From a virus (Duplodnaviria > Heunggongvirae > Uroviricota > Caudoviricetes), in IMG/VR virus record IMGVR_UViG_2579778871_000002: 63,419 bases of DNA; one strand, 5' to 3'. The position numbers were made by a program, and so were the translations under genes. Below the pieces are notes generated by a model. The model was not told the origin of the DNA, did not search any database, and was given only the letters and a program-made list of their open reading frames with translations. Below, one piece after another: positions 4,166-11,737 of this stretch; positions within the stretch are counted from its first letter, which is position 1, and each line of letters begins with the position of its first letter.

Positions 4166-4521
4166 AGCACCACGTCCTGTGTGATAGTTATATCCCTGAT
4201 ACGAATGGATATTTTCAACTTATCAAAAGCATCTCCCTCGGCTACTGACAAGCCAGAAATCGGTATATCAGGTAAATCTACCGTCAGTTTTTGCAACAGC
4301 ATTGCCTCAACCGCAATTTGAACATGCGACAAGTTGGTCGGTTCGTGTTTAAACTGCGGTAAAACATTGCCCCATGACGGATCTCCGTATACCTCACCCT
4401 GATAAGTGTTTAGCCACTCATATAAACGAGCGCCCCAGGCCTCCTCCTGGGACTCATACGTTTTTACGCCGGATAACTCCAGCGTCAGCAAAGGATCAAT
4501 TTCGTTATTGTTGGCCATCAA
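4162..4521 (-). CDS. small baseplate/tail protein
   Basis: 119-aa ORF with 4-nt overlaps on both sides. Confidence 0.45.
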   Translation of the reverse strand: MMANNNEIDPLLTLELSGVKTYESQEEAWGARLYEWLNTYQGEVYGDPSWGNVLPQFKHEPTNLSHVQIAVEAMLLQKLTVDLPDIPISGLSVAEGDAFDKLKISIRIRDITITQDVVL

Positions 4522-7500
4522 TCAACTCTCGCGTAGTCATTCATCAACGGATCATCAATTGACAGTGGTACCGTGCGCATAACGCCCGGCTGAGGCGTGC
4601 TGACCTTTACGACAGTTCCCTGGCCTTTCGCCGAGTCTTTGGTGTGCTCTTCAATCCTGGCAAGCAATGAGGTCATCTGCGCAAACAGCCGCTTCGTTTC
4701 ACCATCAAGTGAAACGGTATTATCAGCCAACTGCATTGTCGGCTTGGCACCGGAACCGCCAAGGTCACTAATAACCTGCCCGTCTATCTGCATACGACCG
4801 GTTGGTTGCTGCAAATCGTTGGCGGCAGTCGTCACCTGGGACGTGGAGGCTGGTTCAGGCGCATTATTTTTCCGCATCCCCGGCGAGTTGCGGAGTTTAT
4901 CGAATAGTCCATCAATCCCCATTTGTGCGCCGAGATGGTCAAAGTAACTTGAGTTGTTGGCCACCGGACGCGCCTCTTCAACTGGCATCGGGGTATCAAC
5001 ATACACATTGCCAGCTGCTGTTGCGGTCCCCTTCCCTCGTGCACGTTCTTCGAGCGTTCCCTGAACGACTTCCCGACGCATCCCCCGGCCATTCATGAAT
5101 TTGTTGACCAGATCGTTAACGCCAACAGCATTGCCAATTTTGTCTACCAGACCGCCTTTCTCAAACGGGCTATCACCAGGGGTAAACGCCAGGCCAGTAG
5201 ACTGATCGATAACAGCGTTATCAGGCAGTGGTCCCCTCACTCCATATTGCGCCCCACCCTGTGCTCCTGCTCCAGGTGTATAGATTTCACCACCTAAATA
5301 GCGAGCACGATGAGTATTGACCTTGATCGCGTACTCACGGTTTTCTTTCGATAAGTCACCTGTGCCTTTTTTCCACTTATTGATAGTGCCAAACCCAGCA
5401 TTATATGCAGTGATGGCCTCGTTTAAGTCTCCATTGGCTTGCTTCAGATATTTGCTCATGAGAAGAGCCGCAGCTTCTGCCGATTTCACAGGATCAAACG
5501 ATTCACCTTCAGCTAAGCCAGTCTCTTCACGAGCAATCCCCGTGAACTGAAACATCCCCAGAGCACCGGTTTGGGATTTTGCATACGGATTACCACCAGA
5601 TTCAGTTGCAGCAATCGCGTAAAGAGTGCCTTCTGGAAGACCGTATTTATTCTCTAGTTCGGCAAAATACGGAGCCAACTTATCGAGATTTGCCTTACCT
5701 TCAGCGCCAAGACTTCCGACTTTTACATCCAAGTTGCCATTGTTGTAGGTATCCGCAGCTTTCTGAATGTCATTCCTGGTGCCAGTGGTATTAAACGACG
5801 ATGATGACGAGCTATTTTGACCAATAGCTTTATCAATTTTCTGCAACGCGCTATTGCCCGTTTCTACGGCATTTGCATTGATAATCTGATTGGCAGTTTG
5901 TTTTACTGTTTTATTGCTATCTTTCGCCGTGTCAAGTGCCGCATTTATCACGCGGGTAGCAATATTACTCTGTTTGGCATCGGATTCAGTTTTAGAATTA
6001 GACGTCTCCTGGTGGCTATTAACCGGAGCTTTTAACTCTGGAGTGATTTCTTTCGCATTAGCCTCGCCGATTGGATTGGGTATTTTTGATACAATCATTG
6101 CCGCAGGGGTATTTTTAACGGCATCAACCGCTGCATCTAATGCTTTACCTGGTAAATTTTTAACCCCATCCCAAATATTACCAGCCGCCTCTTTAATGTG
6201 TTTCCCTGGGTTCTTAATGAAATCAATTGCACTATCAATTGCATCACTGAAAACCTGTTTCAGGTTATCGACAGTAAAGAAGTCTTTGATGGCATCCAGC
6301 TTTTCAAGCAGCTTATTAGATGTATCGCTAAACCATGCTGAAACAGCATCACCAATCTTTGCTGTGTAATCATCGAACTTGGTAGAAATGGTGTCGCCAA
6401 GGTTAGAAATATATGTTTCTAAGTTGGTAATCCCACTATCAATGGCCTGGGCAATACTTTCCGTCGAAAATGATTGCAACATATTGCCGATATCCTCAAA
6501 TCCAAGTGATTTGAGAACCTCACCAATGGCGCTGCTAATACCAGATACCAGTCCCCCCATATCAAGTACATTAGCTAACGTATAAGCGGCTTTTTGCTGG
6601 AATGATGGATCTTGTCCTGATTTAAGCCCAAACGCTCGACGTTGCGCTTCTGTATCATTCCAACCGGTTACCGCATCATAAATACCTCCAGCCACTGTGC
6701 CGACCAGGGGAATTGCGCGTAACGCCCCTTTACCAACTGCCTTTAATCCAAGTTTACCTGCTGCCCGGGCAGCCAAATCTCCGCCTTCATGGGCGAGAGT
6801 CTTCTTGCCACCACCGCGTAGCATTCCTACAAGTTTCTTTGCCCCCAGAGCGCCAAAAGCGAGTGCTCCAGCTTTTTTCAGCATGCCACGCCCCATTAAC
6901 AACGACGCGACGCCACCGGCCCCCTTCCCTAACAGGCTAAATAGTTTGGACAGCAAGCCGCCCTTCTTTTTCCCGGTGTTTTTGGCTATCTGATCAAGGG
7001 CGCTGAGAATCTTGTCATTGCCCTCTTTAATTTCGCTGGTCTGCTCCTGAAGTTCCTGAACCGTCCGTTTTTGGGTGTTAACCTGAACGACATCGGCACT
7101 ATTTTGCGATTTACGCCTAAAAAAACCTTTTCTACGGCTGTTATCGTCATTGCCACGAATCACATCGGCAATAGACTTTCTGGCACCATTAAGCGATCCA
7201 CCAACTTCTTTTGATATCCCGCCAAGCTCCTTCCCTGCTGCCCACAATGGACCAGCAACGGCATAACCTAACGCATCGACGGCACGAGTCTCTGAAGGGT
7301 TACCTATGCCTTCAGCTACTTTTGACAGTTTTTTTAATAAACCTGATTCAGCATTTAGACGCTCATCATCCTCTTTGCGCCTGGCCTTTTCAGCACGTTC
7401 AGCACGGGCATCTTCCGCTGCGGCCTTACTCCCTGACTTTCCAATAAAACGACCACGCGCATCGCGTTGGTTTTGGCTTTTTTGCGCACCGCCTTTTTGA

Positions 7501-7910
7501 CCGAACATTTCGCGAGCGTGTTCGGCTGCTTCGGTCCGTTGCGCCTTTACATCTTCTGTTATAGCCTTCTTGCGTCGTTTTTTACCCTTTCGCGTAGTTG
7601 ATTTGGCCTGCGGTTCCTGTAGAGCAACATCCTCCTGAACTACACGAGAAACGTCCCCTAAATTAAGCCGTTTCATTGCCTCAACAATAGGGTCCACTGA
7701 TGGCGCATTGGCCACAAAGTCTGGCCGGGAATTTTCGATTGTGCGATTTAATGCCGACACACTGCGAGAGACAGGATCAACAGTTGCAACGCGCCCCCCT
7801 TTCAAATCTTCAACAGCTTCCCGGATACCTGCAAGCTCTTCCAGCTCTTTTGCACTGGCGGTTTCAACTGTCCTTATAACATCGTCAATGTTGGCGTTTT
7901 TTCTTTCCAT
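4518..7910 (-). CDS. sit: tail tape-measure-like / injection protein with lytic transglycosylase domain
   Basis: 1130 aa; SLT-type motif (ESGGNPYAKSQTGALGMFQF ... AYNAG); Gly/Lys-rich central region; size close to recalled P1 Sit. Confidence 0.75.
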   Translation of the reverse strand: MERKNANIDDVIRTVETASAKELEELAGIREAVEDLKGGRVATVDPVSRSVSALNRTIENSRPDFVANAPSVDPIVEAMKRLNLGDVSRVVQEDVALQEPQAKSTTRKGKKRRKKAITEDVKAQRTEAAEHAREMFGQKGGAQKSQNQRDARGRFIGKSGSKAAAEDARAERAEKARRKEDDERLNAESGLLKKLSKVAEGIGNPSETRAVDALGYAVAGPLWAAGKELGGISKEVGGSLNGARKSIADVIRGNDDNSRRKGFFRRKSQNSADVVQVNTQKRTVQELQEQTSEIKEGNDKILSALDQIAKNTGKKKGGLLSKLFSLLGKGAGGVASLLMGRGMLKKAGALAFGALGAKKLVGMLRGGGKKTLAHEGGDLAARAAGKLGLKAVGKGALRAIPLVGTVAGGIYDAVTGWNDTEAQRRAFGLKSGQDPSFQQKAAYTLANVLDMGGLVSGISSAIGEVLKSLGFEDIGNMLQSFSTESIAQAIDSGITNLETYISNLGDTISTKFDDYTAKIGDAVSAWFSDTSNKLLEKLDAIKDFFTVDNLKQVFSDAIDSAIDFIKNPGKHIKEAAGNIWDGVKNLPGKALDAAVDAVKNTPAAMIVSKIPNPIGEANAKEITPELKAPVNSHQETSNSKTESDAKQSNIATRVINAALDTAKDSNKTVKQTANQIINANAVETGNSALQKIDKAIGQNSSSSSSFNTTGTRNDIQKAADTYNNGNLDVKVGSLGAEGKANLDKLAPYFAELENKYGLPEGTLYAIAATESGGNPYAKSQTGALGMFQFTGIAREETGLAEGESFDPVKSAEAAALLMSKYLKQANGDLNEAITAYNAGFGTINKWKKGTGDLSKENREYAIKVNTHRARYLGGEIYTPGAGAQGGAQYGVRGPLPDNAVIDQSTGLAFTPGDSPFEKGGLVDKIGNAVGVNDLVNKFMNGRGMRREVVQGTLEERARGKGTATAAGNVYVDTPMPVEEARPVANNSSYFDHLGAQMGIDGLFDKLRNSPGMRKNNAPEPASTSQVTTAANDLQQPTGRMQIDGQVISDLGGSGAKPTMQLADNTVSLDGETKRLFAQMTSLLARIEEHTKDSAKGQGTVVKVSTPQPGVMRTVPLSIDDPLMNDYARVD

Positions 7911-7991
7911 GATCTTATCGCCTACCGTTTCGGTTTAAGTTTTTCTTCCAGTTTCTCCAACAGGAAAAACGCATAGGATTCAGTAAGCCTT

Positions 7992-8873
7992 TCAGCGTCC
8001 TGAATCGGTATACCCCCATACAAAACCAGGTTGGACACTAAGGTCTGATAGCTTTTCAATCCCCACCTGTGGAATGAAGTCGGTAGCCCGAAAGGGCACC
8101 CACAGACGGGTATATGCACCCTCTGTGGACTCCTTTTTATCCTGATTTGGGCATTTATGCGGCGGGAGACGAAGACGCATTTCACCTTTATCGATGTAGC
8201 ACGGTAAACCATGTTCGAGCTTTTCATGAGCCAGTCGGATGTGTGCCGCCAGCTTCATAAATTCAGTATCAATGGCCATCCGTTTAATCGTTTCATAACG
8301 ACGCTCAGCCTGATCTTCACGAGTACCGCTAACATCGTTATAAAGCTCACACTGATAAGCGAATTCCCAAAAACGCAAATCAACGATCGCTTCTTTGAAT
8401 TCCGCGTCGTCTTCAGGTGGCAATGCAGCACGGCGCATCTCCAGCATTTCCATTGCCCAGCCATCAAGCGGCACGATACGCCATTGATAAGGCACTCCCT
8501 CTACAGACACCTCAATATCGTCAATGAACGGTTCCACTTCCAGGACCTGGATATCTTCAGCCAGAGCATTCATATCGCAATCGTAATAATGCTCTTTACC
8601 GCAATGTTTACAGGTGTAGGTGAATGTCTCGACCGGTGTTTCACGGGAGCCGGTAAATATCCACCATAACGCGGTAATCCGATCCTGCGCCGTCCATGTC
8701 AGGGGATCATGTTTCGCGGGTTCAGCCAGCAAGGCTTTTAAATACGCCGTTGTCTGTTGTTCTTGTTCCTCCGGTGTTATCGAGTTGAAACGCATCGCAT
8801 CAGCAATATTTGGCTGACGGAACTGGATCAATTCAGTTGGCCGCGATGGTAGCGGGAAAAGAGGTAAAAGCAT
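7992..8873 (-). CDS. hypothetical structural protein with CxxC pair
   Basis: 293-aa ORF; CKHCGKEHYYDCDM motif. Confidence 0.45.
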   Translation of the reverse strand: MLLPLFPLPSRPTELIQFRQPNIADAMRFNSITPEEQEQQTTAYLKALLAEPAKHDPLTWTAQDRITALWWIFTGSRETPVETFTYTCKHCGKEHYYDCDMNALAEDIQVLEVEPFIDDIEVSVEGVPYQWRIVPLDGWAMEMLEMRRAALPPEDDAEFKEAIVDLRFWEFAYQCELYNDVSGTREDQAERRYETIKRMAIDTEFMKLAAHIRLAHEKLEHGLPCYIDKGEMRLRLPPHKCPNQDKKESTEGAYTRLWVPFRATDFIPQVGIEKLSDLSVQPGFVWGYTDSGR

Positions 8874-8887
8874 CCTTGCTCCTTAAT

Positions 8888-9499
8888 TCAAAGAGAAAAA
8901 CTAAAGCCCAGAAGGGAAGCCAAAGAACTTGAGGATTGGTTAAACGTGCTGTGCAATGCGAAGGTCATTGGGAATGACTTAAATTCCGTAACCTGATCCC
9001 GCGCATAGGTGACATCGCCGGTAGTGACCGGAAAAACAGTCATCTCATTTTCCAGTTTGGTTAAGCCGGAAGACAGCAACCGATAAATACGCACATTGAG
9101 CAAATATTTAGACGGTATATTCACGGTGCCGTCAGGATTGATCACCCGACTTTTTGCCGTATTAAACCAGTCAAAAACAAGGCCATCACCGGTATCCCTG
9201 ACCATCATTGTTATCTGCCCAGGAGAACGCTCCGTTGGCTGAAGGATATTCCCTCCGCCGATTTTAATCGTTTCATATTCGATGCTGTAATCGTGGTAGG
9301 TAATGTCTTTGGCAAAGAAGTCTGCCCCCTCCAGTCCATCAACTTCGACAGAGAACTGCCATCCTTGCGCGAACAACATTTTGTTCATGATGATTGACGT
9401 CAGCTTACCAACTTCCCGCTCACCAACGCCGGAGCCAAATAATGTCGTCGTTAATGCCGAAGATACATAAGACTTTACTGAAGCAACATTAAGCCCCAT
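8888..9499 (-). CDS. tail structural protein (tube-like candidate)
   Basis: 203-aa ORF in structural operon. Confidence 0.4.
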   Translation of the reverse strand: MGLNVASVKSYVSSALTTTLFGSGVGEREVGKLTSIIMNKMLFAQGWQFSVEVDGLEGADFFAKDITYHDYSIEYETIKIGGGNILQPTERSPGQITMMVRDTGDGLVFDWFNTAKSRVINPDGTVNIPSKYLLNVRIYRLLSSGLTKLENEMTVFPVTTGDVTYARDQVTEFKSFPMTFALHSTFNQSSSSLASLLGFSFSL

Positions 9500-9509
9500 A
9501 TCAGCTCCC

Positions 9510-10100
<591 letters not shown>

Positions 10101-10134
10101 TTACCCGATTCTACGAGTAGTCATTTGTGACAGG

Positions 10135-10611
10135 TCATTTTGCGCGCTTCAGGCAGCCATCTTCAGGTGCCGCGTTGAAAAGCTCTGCGGCCTTACGTAG
10201 CGTAAATGTTGCGATTTTTTTTCCGTCTACGTATGCATCGAATGTTTTAACTTCCATATCAGGGGTATCTGACCAAAAACCATACCAGTAACTATCACCC
10301 ACAGAGGAACCGATAGAACTGATAGGATATTCATCATCACCAACTTTCAGCGTTATTTGTTCTTTTTTAGCATCAAATGACTCACCGCCAGGTTCTGTTT
10401 TCATGAGAGTGAGTAGTCGTGTTCCTACTTGATTGGGATCCGTATTATTAAATCCAACATCGCACTCAAATGTAAGCGTATAATTATCTTTGCTGGAAAC
10501 AGCATAAGAGCGAACGCCATGAGTCTCGCTGGTGGACCATTTGCTTACATTTGCCATTGATGAAAACGGAGTAAGCAAAGCAAGAATTAGAAAATATCGT
10601 TTGATGCGCAT
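10135..10611 (-). CDS. secreted/periplasmic protein (Sim-region)
   Basis: 158 aa; N-terminal signal peptide MRIKRYFLILALLTPFSSMA. Confidence 0.5.
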   Translation of the reverse strand: MRIKRYFLILALLTPFSSMANVSKWSTSETHGVRSYAVSSKDNYTLTFECDVGFNNTDPNQVGTRLLTLMKTEPGGESFDAKKEQITLKVGDDEYPISSIGSSVGDSYWYGFWSDTPDMEVKTFDAYVDGKKIATFTLRKAAELFNAAPEDGCLKRAK

Positions 10612-10662
10612 TAATTTATCTCCTTTGGATATTAATATTTTAATTAGTTAACCACCATATAT

Positions 10663-11337
10663 TCACCATTCATAGGGTAAATTAAGCGCTTTTAAACCTT
10701 GCTGGAAAGTATTAAGAGAGCCGTTTTTTTGTTGTTCCATTTTTTCGCGTGCAGCTTTCTCATACTGCTCCATCCGTTGGTTATACTCTTGCAATTCCTC
10801 CGGGGAGAGGTTTCCCATTGGGGAGTTTGTACCCGGCCCCCTGGCCCGTTCTTCAAGCGTACCCTGAACGTTTTGATGGCGCATTCCCGGGGCGTTTCTG
10901 ATTGAATCAATGCCATTTCTTCCAACGTCTTCTTTATTAACGGCATTGCTCGCCACCAGTACGCCCCAGCTAGGGATAGCAAAATCAGGAGCGGTTTCGC
11001 ATGCCTTTACCATATAATCGAAAGAGCTTCGATTGATCTCGTTTGCGTCGGGATTTAATAGGCGAGAATATTGATATTTAGCATTTTCGTTGGTTGCGAC
11101 TTTATACAGTTCTTGCTGCACCATCGCTTCAGAAAGTTTAAGGCGTTTCATATCTGATAGTAACTTCTTGCGCATGGATTCGTCTTGACTGACAGCAAAA
11201 CCGTAAACGTGCCCAAGGTATTTCGTATAATCGGTACAAATCTCCTTTACGCTTGATGCTGCATTAACAGTCCCAGCCATAAATAATAACGGTAGTAATA
11301 GTTTTCTCATTATAACCTCACCTGCCTTATAACTCAT
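10663..11337 (-). CDS. simC: superinfection-exclusion-like periplasmic protein (SimC-like); likely true start at 11310 (MRKLLLPLLF..., SD GGTGAGG)
   Basis: Signal peptide MRKLLLPLLFMAGTVNAASS; about 25 kDa; sits between tail operon and immI as recalled for P1 sim; shares motif with Sit. Confidence 0.5.
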   Translation of the reverse strand: MSYKAGEVIMRKLLLPLLFMAGTVNAASSVKEICTDYTKYLGHVYGFAVSQDESMRKKLLSDMKRLKLSEAMVQQELYKVATNENAKYQYSRLLNPDANEINRSSFDYMVKACETAPDFAIPSWGVLVASNAVNKEDVGRNGIDSIRNAPGMRHQNVQGTLEERARGPGTNSPMGNLSPEELQEYNQRMEQYEKAAREKMEQQKNGSLNTFQQGLKALNLPYEW

Positions 11338-11406
11338 TTAGGGTACATATTTTCGCCTTTAAAAAAAAGAGGTTATTAGATCCAATTGTGTATTTATTAA
11401 GCATAT

Positions 11407-11423
11407 AATGCTCTAATAAATTT
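11407..11423 (+). promoter_or_regulatory. C1 repressor operator (immI promoter region, Op51-like)
   Basis: AATGCTCTAATAAATTT, 16/17 to recurring 17-mer ATTGCTCTAATAAATTT. Confidence 0.7.
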
Positions 11424-11469: not shown

Positions 11470-11560
11470 TTAATCGTTCAGGCTTATAGTTCCGCCGTCG
11501 TAGCAAATTCTGCGACCGGGTTTAGCAGCCTGAATGATTGTGCGGACAGCCGCAGATATC
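11470..11560 (+). ncRNA. c4: c4-like antisense immunity RNA (approximate bounds)
   Basis: Noncoding stretch between operator and icd; GGTTTAGCAG (about 11519-11528) is complementary to CTGCTAACC (11661-11669) and resembles TTTAGCAGCGGGTAGCAG further downstream, matching the recalled c4 a'/b' to a2/b2 pairing mechanism. Confidence 0.3.
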
Positions 11561-11737
11561 CGATATTGCGGTATTTTTGTGTCCGTAAAACCGCGTTACG
11601 CCCAAATTATGGTGGGGCGTGATGGGGAGGCTTCGGCCTGCTGGTTTCACAATCGCCAGTCTGCTAACCCCGTCACGTCCTGCCACCTGTTTAGCAGCGG
11701 GTAGCAGGTTGTTAAACCTGATTGTGAGGCCGTAACT

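Follow-up and report, generated by a model that had tools for sequence, protein, structure and literature searches.

A putatively exported simA-family protein of a P1-like phage carries a segment of the tape-measure protein Sit: a candidate decoy in superinfection exclusion

Why should a small protein encoded at the superimmunity (sim) locus of a P1-like phage carry a piece of that phage's own injection protein? The question is raised by the viral record IMGVR_UViG_2579778871_000002 (hereafter the window, i.e. the whole stretch of 63,419 nucleotides that was analysed), whose DNA is 97-98% identical to that of P1-like phages (Punavirus), Escherichia phage vB_EcoM-Ro157c2YLVW being the closest, followed by P1 and P7. 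Two minus-strand genes are concerned: sit (4518-7910), which encodes the 1130-amino-acid (aa) tape-measure and injection transglycosylase protein, and an intact simA-family gene (10663-11310), which encodes a product of 215 aa, referred to below as the small protein. The sharing of a motif by these two proteins is real and highly non-random. Of the explanations that we weighed, a decoy-type exclusion of P1-like phage entry by the exported, motif-bearing protein fits best, and we put it forward tentatively.

The motif was pointed out in an initial annotation, and all three peptides quoted there are present in the sequence: residues 940-962 of Sit read NGRGMRREVVQGTLEERARGKGT, a second stretch of Sit reads GIDGLFDKLRNSPGMRKNNAP, and the small protein contains GIDSIRNAPGMRHQNVQGTLEERARGPGT. 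Pairwise alignment confirmed that the similarity is significant. BLASTP paired residues 131-177 of the small protein (numbered on a longer, 224-aa reading of the gene, see below) with residues 927-969 of Sit (23/47 identities, 43.1 bits, E=7e-9), and the Smith-Waterman score was 101, compared with 39.8±5.3 (maximum 63) for 500 shuffled sequences (z=11.5). Among the 66 open reading frames of the window Sit was the sole outlier, the runner-up scoring 49. The same relationship appeared at the family level, where positions 929-972 of the Sit-family profile phrog_2533 were hit by the small protein (E=9e-8) and positions 129-169 of phrog_3933, the family of the small protein, by Sit (E=3.7e-6). Multiple alignment showed that the similarity is longer than first quoted, extending over approximately 35-45 residues from DKIG/KEDxG to G-x-GT...GN, with the shared consensus F-M-N-x-[RP]-G-M-R-x-x-V-x-Q-G-T-L-x-E-R-A-x-G-x-G-T. 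In Sit the segment (motif 1, residues 923-962, positions 5025-5144 on the minus strand) reads DKIGNAVGVNDLVNKFMNGRGMRREVVQGTLEERARGKGT, and in the small protein (10828-10935, minus strand) it reads KEDVGRNGIDSIRNAPGMRHQNVQGTLEERARGPGT. The DNA of the two motif regions aligns with 24 matches within a 27-nt stretch.

Sit is commonly taken to be ejected into the periplasm when infection begins. The window protein matches phrog_2533 over its full length, its gene is 97-98% identical at the DNA level to sit of P1, P7 and Ro157c2YLVW, and its place in the tail operon is that found in P1 (pmgC-tub-pmgB-sit-pmgA-bplA). The protein contains an SLT lytic transglycosylase domain (residues 748-857, positions 5340-5669, minus strand; Pfam PF01464, 93.4 bits, E=8.9e-27), in agreement with the earlier designation of Sit as an injected transglycosylase. 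A cryo-electron microscopy study of P1 (2026) names Sit the tape-measure protein (TMP), which is not resolved in the virion structure. The shared segment is not part of the SLT domain, which lies about 65 residues upstream, and no PDB sequence matched the C-terminal 270 residues of Sit. None of the complete Sit orthologues examined lacked motif 1, even where overall identity had fallen to 40%. As to the second copy that had been attributed to Sit (motif 2, residues 998-1018, positions 4857-4919, minus strand), the peptide is there; it is, however, only a partial internal duplication (GIDGLFDKLRNSPGMR) covering the first half of motif 1. Motif 2 lies within an insertion of about 43 residues (Sit ~976-1018, window 4857-4985, minus strand) that occurs only in the E. 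coli P1/P7-type Sit and is absent from the Salmonella/Klebsiella type. This repeat was revealed by the alignment of orthologues and was not reported by a BLAST comparison of Sit with itself. In related loci the insertion has two allelic forms, ...FDKLRNSPGMRKNNAP... and ...YDKLINARGMRSNNSP..., the latter being that of P1 itself. Further upstream (residues ~318-375, window 6780-6960, minus strand) Sit has a hydrophobic stretch rich in glycine, GGLLSKLFSLLGKGAGGVASLLMGRGMLKKAGALAFGALGAKKLVGMLRGGG, of a kind typical for the segments by which tape-measure proteins have been proposed to insert into membranes.

Is the peptide peculiar to these two proteins? When 1.84 billion representative proteins were searched exhaustively with HMMER and a profile of the motif, 10 hits were returned, which were Sit-family proteins, simA-family proteins, fragments of either, and one repeat protein (P0033, with MLEERTRGHGV) that was judged spurious. 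A word-indexed search with the same profile had recovered four fragments and missed Sit itself, and the exhaustive search was used instead. Apart from the spurious one, all hits belong to the Sit and simA families; the peptide is therefore confined to these two and is neither a common module nor a copy of a host protein.

The conservation of the motif across P1-like phages, which the initial annotation had named as a check, was observed on both sides, in all complete Sits examined and, for the core, in the simA family. Alignment of 22 simA-family sequences showed the core N-x-[PR]-G-M-R-x-Q in all members, and the motif is retained in both families where the Sit proteins are 40-50% and the SimA-like proteins 42-59% identical. 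Comparison of the 24 motif codons of sit and the simA-family gene in four genomes showed that 15-17 of them encode the same residue in both genes, 10-11 of these by different codons. These mostly synonymous differences rule out recent gene conversion, or a repeat at the DNA level, as the main cause of the similarity and argue that the peptide is under purifying selection in both.

The two copies also show some tendency to vary together. Over 32 residues in six lineages, the summed identities of cognate SimA/Sit pairs were 99, against a permutation mean of 91.2, a value reached in 16/720 permutations (p≈0.022, a nominal significance for six lineages that are not independent). The clearest case is a diverged phage represented by two contigs (L088 and L089, 100% identical over their 5628-nt overlap), in which Sit reads NAPGMRHQVATGSMADRAYG and the SimA-like protein SAPGMRHQAVKGSMAERARG, with GSMA in both where other Sits have GTL[AE]. 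Similarly, a SimA-like protein from a short contig (GTLAERAYGKGTSTAMGN) has the version found in the Salmonella/Klebsiella Sit, and the small protein of the window has EERARG, the version of the E. coli Sit. For a 16-residue core, strict cognate co-variation was not upheld.

What, then, is the small protein? Its gene was initially given the extent 10663-11337, from an in-frame upstream ATG that would yield 224 aa. The real start is most likely the ATG at 11310 (MRKLLL...), because it is preceded by a ribosome-binding site, AGGTGAGG, and because the homologues, as well as the RefSeq record of a 98%-identical phage, start there. The protein matches phrog_3933 over its full length (profile positions 1-213 of 213, E=4.8e-137), and its homologues are named 'simA domain protein' or 'hypothetical' in the records examined. 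The P1 SimA protein (52 aa) is identical to the 224-aa reading over its first 45 residues, after which come 7 unrelated codons and a stop (P1 simA, L001 8943-9101, corresponds to window 11176-11337, minus strand), and the DNA upstream is about 97% identical to P1. As SimA equals only the first 45 residues of the intact protein, P1 simA is, judged by this comparison, a truncated remnant of the gene found in the window, and simB-simC appear to have replaced the remainder of it together with the adjacent YfjT-like gene. The 'Sim-like' label of the initial annotation is thus only partly apt, namely with regard to the locus and to SimA. Homology to SimC was rejected: no BLASTP alignment was better than E=29, and the two belong to different PHROGs (phrog_3933 and phrog_14355). 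Sequence similarity to SimB was not found either.

The protein begins with a signal peptide, MRKLLLPLLFMAGTVNA, of the A-x-A type (11260-11310, minus strand), read from the sequence and conserved in the family alignment. It ends in V-N-A|A (the cleavage site is inferred) and lacks a lipobox cysteine, and no hydrophobic or transmembrane segment follows it. With such a typical cleavable signal peptide, export is probable, as had been proposed, and the mature protein is probably periplasmic and soluble. An AlphaFold2 model, built on the 22-sequence alignment including a distant clade (an earlier alignment of 14 sequences gave a pLDDT, the confidence score of the model, of 43 and was unusable), predicts three parts. 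Residues ~18-128 (10927-11259, minus strand) form an all-helical N-domain (pLDDT 91-97) with two invariant cysteines and an invariant IPSW, these alignment columns being invariant or nearly so. The shared-motif stretch follows with a pLDDT of ~48-58 and, given this low confidence, is probably flexible. Residues ~170-208 (10687-10803, minus strand) form a variable C-terminal tail consisting of one long charged helix. Fold relatives of the N-domain were searched for and none was found; the domain has no sequence or fold match to solved structures, nor did the family profile match any PDB sequence, and NCBIfam gave no match. A PTP-like phytase match (PF14566) over 85 residues of the helical region scored 26.4 bits, below the Pfam cut-off of 27, had no fold support and was treated as spurious. 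The predicted architecture, an exported folded domain with a flexible copy of a tape-measure segment, is as would be expected for a displayed linear motif.

The natural variants of the small protein indicate which of its parts are kept. We collected 35 simA-family homologues or clusters, found on P1-like or D6-like phage-plasmid contigs of ~85-104 kb from Escherichia, Salmonella and Klebsiella and in metagenomes. All the long contigs are P1-like, and each carries a motif-bearing Sit wherever it reaches sit; therefore, the small protein always co-resides with a Sit of this kind. Two contigs of ~2.8 kb (L081 and L082) carry 99-100% identical copies of the gene in metagenome-assembled genomes labelled 'Candidatus Paenibacillus intestinavium' and 'Bacillota bacterium', most likely as a result of binning contamination rather than real host range. 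A match to the gene is present in 251 of 5426 complete E. coli genomes (4.6%, any part), in 81 of them (~1.5%) as the full-length gene, and 248 of the 252 matching places are on plasmids; in PLSDB 267 plasmids have a match, 84 of them full length. Besides the 215-aa form of the window and remnants of 43-52 aa as in P1, there is an abundant 163-aa E. coli variant (L033-L046 and L080, e.g. L036), 97-99% identical to the window protein up to residue ~161, which stops right after ...QGTLEERARGPGVAP. The long C-terminal helix is thus dispensable. A distant 176-aa clade ends soon after NAPGMRHQAVKGSMAERARGDGT. In both of these short forms the terminus lies 2-14 residues from the G-x-G-[TV] of the motif, so that N-domain plus motif appears as the retained unit, and the motif is kept in clades only 39-43% identical. 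The tails of the family are mosaic, with breakpoints right after GMRxQ. Beyond this point many members (P0010, P0017, P0020, P0030, P0042 and others) carry one or two copies of a module of ~35 residues bracketed by two cysteines, e.g. IKKCVETKLALMKQDSPNIPVSQLTATATSLCKDGL.

We suggest, as a possible though by no means established explanation, superinfection exclusion by self-mimicry, in which a soluble decoy of the phage's own TMP segment would saturate the periplasmic partner of that segment. The prophage would encode a soluble protein that is exported to the periplasm, where its folded helical domain would carry a flexible stretch displaying the copy of the conserved Sit segment. By occupying the partner on which the Sit segment depends once it has been ejected, be it a factor of the host periplasm or inner membrane, a second ejected phage protein or Sit itself, the displayed peptide would keep the incoming phage from penetrating the cell wall or forming a channel. 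The envelope of the cell would thereby be protected against P1-like phages, and genome entry would be blocked for all phages relying on the segment. Escape from such a block would be difficult, since a segment taken to be essential and evolutionarily constrained has little freedom to vary. In this scheme we infer the periplasmic location and the partner, and expression of the gene from the prophage is assumed.

Decoy-type exclusion fits the observations because the motif is private to two families and under apparent purifying selection in both, because in the small protein it lies on a stretch modelled with low confidence and covaries weakly with the cognate Sit, because the alternative cassettes at the locus all encode exported proteins, and because exclusion proteins acting on tape-measure proteins have precedent. 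On the other hand, several observations weigh against it. The co-variation is suggestive only: the SimA motif of the window fits the Sit of a Klebsiella aerogenes phage-plasmid (L086) better than its own (20 versus 17 of 32 residues), and in one E. coli variant (L049 type) the motif has clearly diverged although the neighbouring Sit is of the standard kind. About half of the family has only the N-x-[PR]-G-M-R-x-Q core, the QGTLEERARG part being swapped for unrelated tails. P1 and P7 lack an intact gene yet keep the same Sit motif, and therefore the protein is dispensable for the phage. The motif was absent from host proteins among the representative proteins searched. The exclusion determinant of P1 is, by annotation, SimC, which is unrelated to the simA family. 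Finally, a simple scan found no sigma-70 consensus promoter upstream of the gene; the P1 annotation predicts a promoter, PsimA, in the homologous sequence, which is 97% identical.

The precedents come from other phages. Imm of T4 binds the T4 TMP, the TMP is the identified target of Ltp of phage TP-J34, and the block exerted by gp15 of HK97 is escaped by swapping tail-tube/TMP genes. All three are envelope proteins encoded by phages, all three stop genome entry at the tape-measure step, and the small protein can be likened to them as a candidate. However, they are membrane proteins or lipoproteins, whereas the small protein looks soluble, having neither a membrane anchor nor a lipobox, and no sequence sharing with a TMP has been reported for them, whereas the small protein carries a copy of a TMP segment. 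This combination would therefore imply competition or co-assembly rather than simple capture. Another small exported phage protein, Spackle (Sp) of T4, inhibits the tail lysozyme gp5 in the periplasm. Its target is the part of the incoming tail that degrades the cell wall, and Sit has a corresponding enzymatic domain (SLT), but the shared segment lies outside that domain, and the small protein has no sequence or fold match to any solved structure. The tape-measure proteins of mycobacteriophages embed small motifs (Rpf-like and others) common to unrelated secreted proteins; there, the motifs are presumed to help infection and the host encodes the partner proteins, whereas in the present case both proteins come from one phage. 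Closest in position is the P1 simABC system. In literature of 1989-1990, Sim is said to block P1 entry after adsorption and to be processed by signal-peptide cleavage. Sim (SimC) and the small protein occupy the same locus and both have signal peptides, and P1 SimA matches the 5' end of the intact gene, but SimB and SimC have neither sequence similarity to the small protein nor the motif. The literature searched described neither the shared motif nor simA as a truncated gene; the P1 genome paper was outside its coverage.

Two further explanations keep a role for the peptide, and we consider each of them improbable, though worth retaining. According to the first, the small protein would target the incoming Sit or a co-ejected phage protein directly, rather than a host factor, and exclusion would again be the result. 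The Sit segment would mediate Sit-Sit contacts, or contacts of Sit with another ejected protein, during assembly of the trans-envelope conduit, and the small protein would act as a poison subunit, either by co-assembling through its copy of the segment or by binding the Sit segment with its helical domain, for which its own copy would serve as a placeholder in cis. Imm and Ltp, with their TMP targets, provide the analogy. Phage-phage contacts would also predict lineage-specific co-variation such as the GSMA present in both proteins of one phage (p≈0.02 for the pairs overall), and they would agree with the lack of the motif in any host protein. Against this, the AlphaFold2 model shows no confident packing of the motif on the N-domain (motif pLDDT ~50), the oligomer interfaces of Sit are presumed ones, and the contacts of a segment that is not seen in the P1 virion structure are hypothetical.

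According to the second, which we regard as about equally doubtful, each protein would use the segment independently in the periplasm, without competition, for instance to dock a chaperone or protease of the periplasm or to contact the cell wall or a membrane. On this view the small protein would serve lysogenic conversion or the envelope and have nothing to do with phage exclusion. In favour are the purifying selection that acts on the peptide in either protein and the expectation that both meet the periplasm; in addition, the gene travels with other genes for exported or membrane proteins (YfjT-like and others), and half of the family makes do with the short core alone. A generic periplasmic module should, however, recur elsewhere, and this one is limited to two families of one phage group, the simA family occurring only in phages with a motif-bearing Sit. 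Cognate co-variation would likewise be unexpected for a conserved host partner, unless the partner differs between host genera.

That the segment is a functionless leftover, a piece of sit (or simA) copied into the other gene by illegitimate recombination, would suit the mosaic cassettes of this recombination hot spot, the tail breakpoints after GMRxQ and the partial duplication within Sit itself, but it is very improbable because the codon comparison indicates selection on the peptide, synonymous sites in the motif being largely randomised while the residues are identical in four lineages, and the motif persists both in strongly diverged clades and in the short variants that end just past it.

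The surroundings of the gene deserve a brief description. The minus-strand gene order is the simA-family gene (10663-11310), a gene at 10135-10611, pmgC, tub, pmgB, sit (4518-7910), pmgA and bplA. With the immI region (c4-icd-ant) on one side and the late tail operon (pmgC-tub-pmgB-sit) on the other, the simA-family gene is situated at the P1 sim locus, which is known to vary among P1-like phage-plasmids. The c4-icd-ant immunity region is on the plus strand, divergent from the simA-family gene and the tail operon; just upstream of the simA-family gene it comprises the C4 antisense RNA (11605-11690, plus strand; Rfam RF01695, 69.6 bits) and its a1b1 target element (11484-11536, plus strand; RF03163). 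A sequence resembling a C1 operator, ATAATGCTCTAATAAATTT (plus strand, ~11404-11422), precedes the 11310 start by ~95-110 bp, which is where the P1 annotation places the operator Oc4. The downstream partner gene (10135-10611, minus strand; phrog_3429) encodes a 158-aa YfjT-like protein with a signal peptide. Its orthologues in related phage-plasmids belong to Pfam PF27224 (YfjT, named for an E. coli K-12 gene), are 30-66% identical to one another and accompany the simA-family gene in most lineages. The window phage has these two genes in place of simB and simC, and P7 has a cassette for a DUF5384 protein and a lipoprotein. Each of the alternative sim-locus products (SimB, SimC, P7 Upf50.0/50.5 and the YfjT-like proteins) has a signal peptide. 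None of the simA-family protein, the YfjT-like protein, SimB and SimC had a PADLOC-DB match at E≤0.1. In the diverged P1-like phage of metagenome SHEN23-1 (Sit 40% identical; L089 10001-11452 and L088), the cassette is absent from the usual position and the simA-family gene lies away from the tail operon, beside a PAAR-like gene and followed by genes for a 123-aa exported protein and a 161-aa multi-pass membrane protein.

For P1 itself, the comparison corrects the reading of simA, which appears as a truncated remnant and not as a gene in its own right. More generally, the passage of the TMP and DNA across the periplasm is poorly understood in P1-type contractile-tail phages, and a conserved Sit segment copied into a probably exported accessory protein marks a candidate interaction site. 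The shared motif suggests, without proving it, that a decoy blocks the entry of related phages. If this is true, it would be an exclusion at the tape-measure step, which is already known as a type of exclusion, and a competition-based mechanism would join the known capture-type ways in which phages exclude their relatives. It would also assign a function to a gene that P1-like phage-plasmids bring, at full length, to ~1.5% of the complete E. coli genomes and, counting any part of it, to 4.6%; such phage-plasmids often carry resistance genes.

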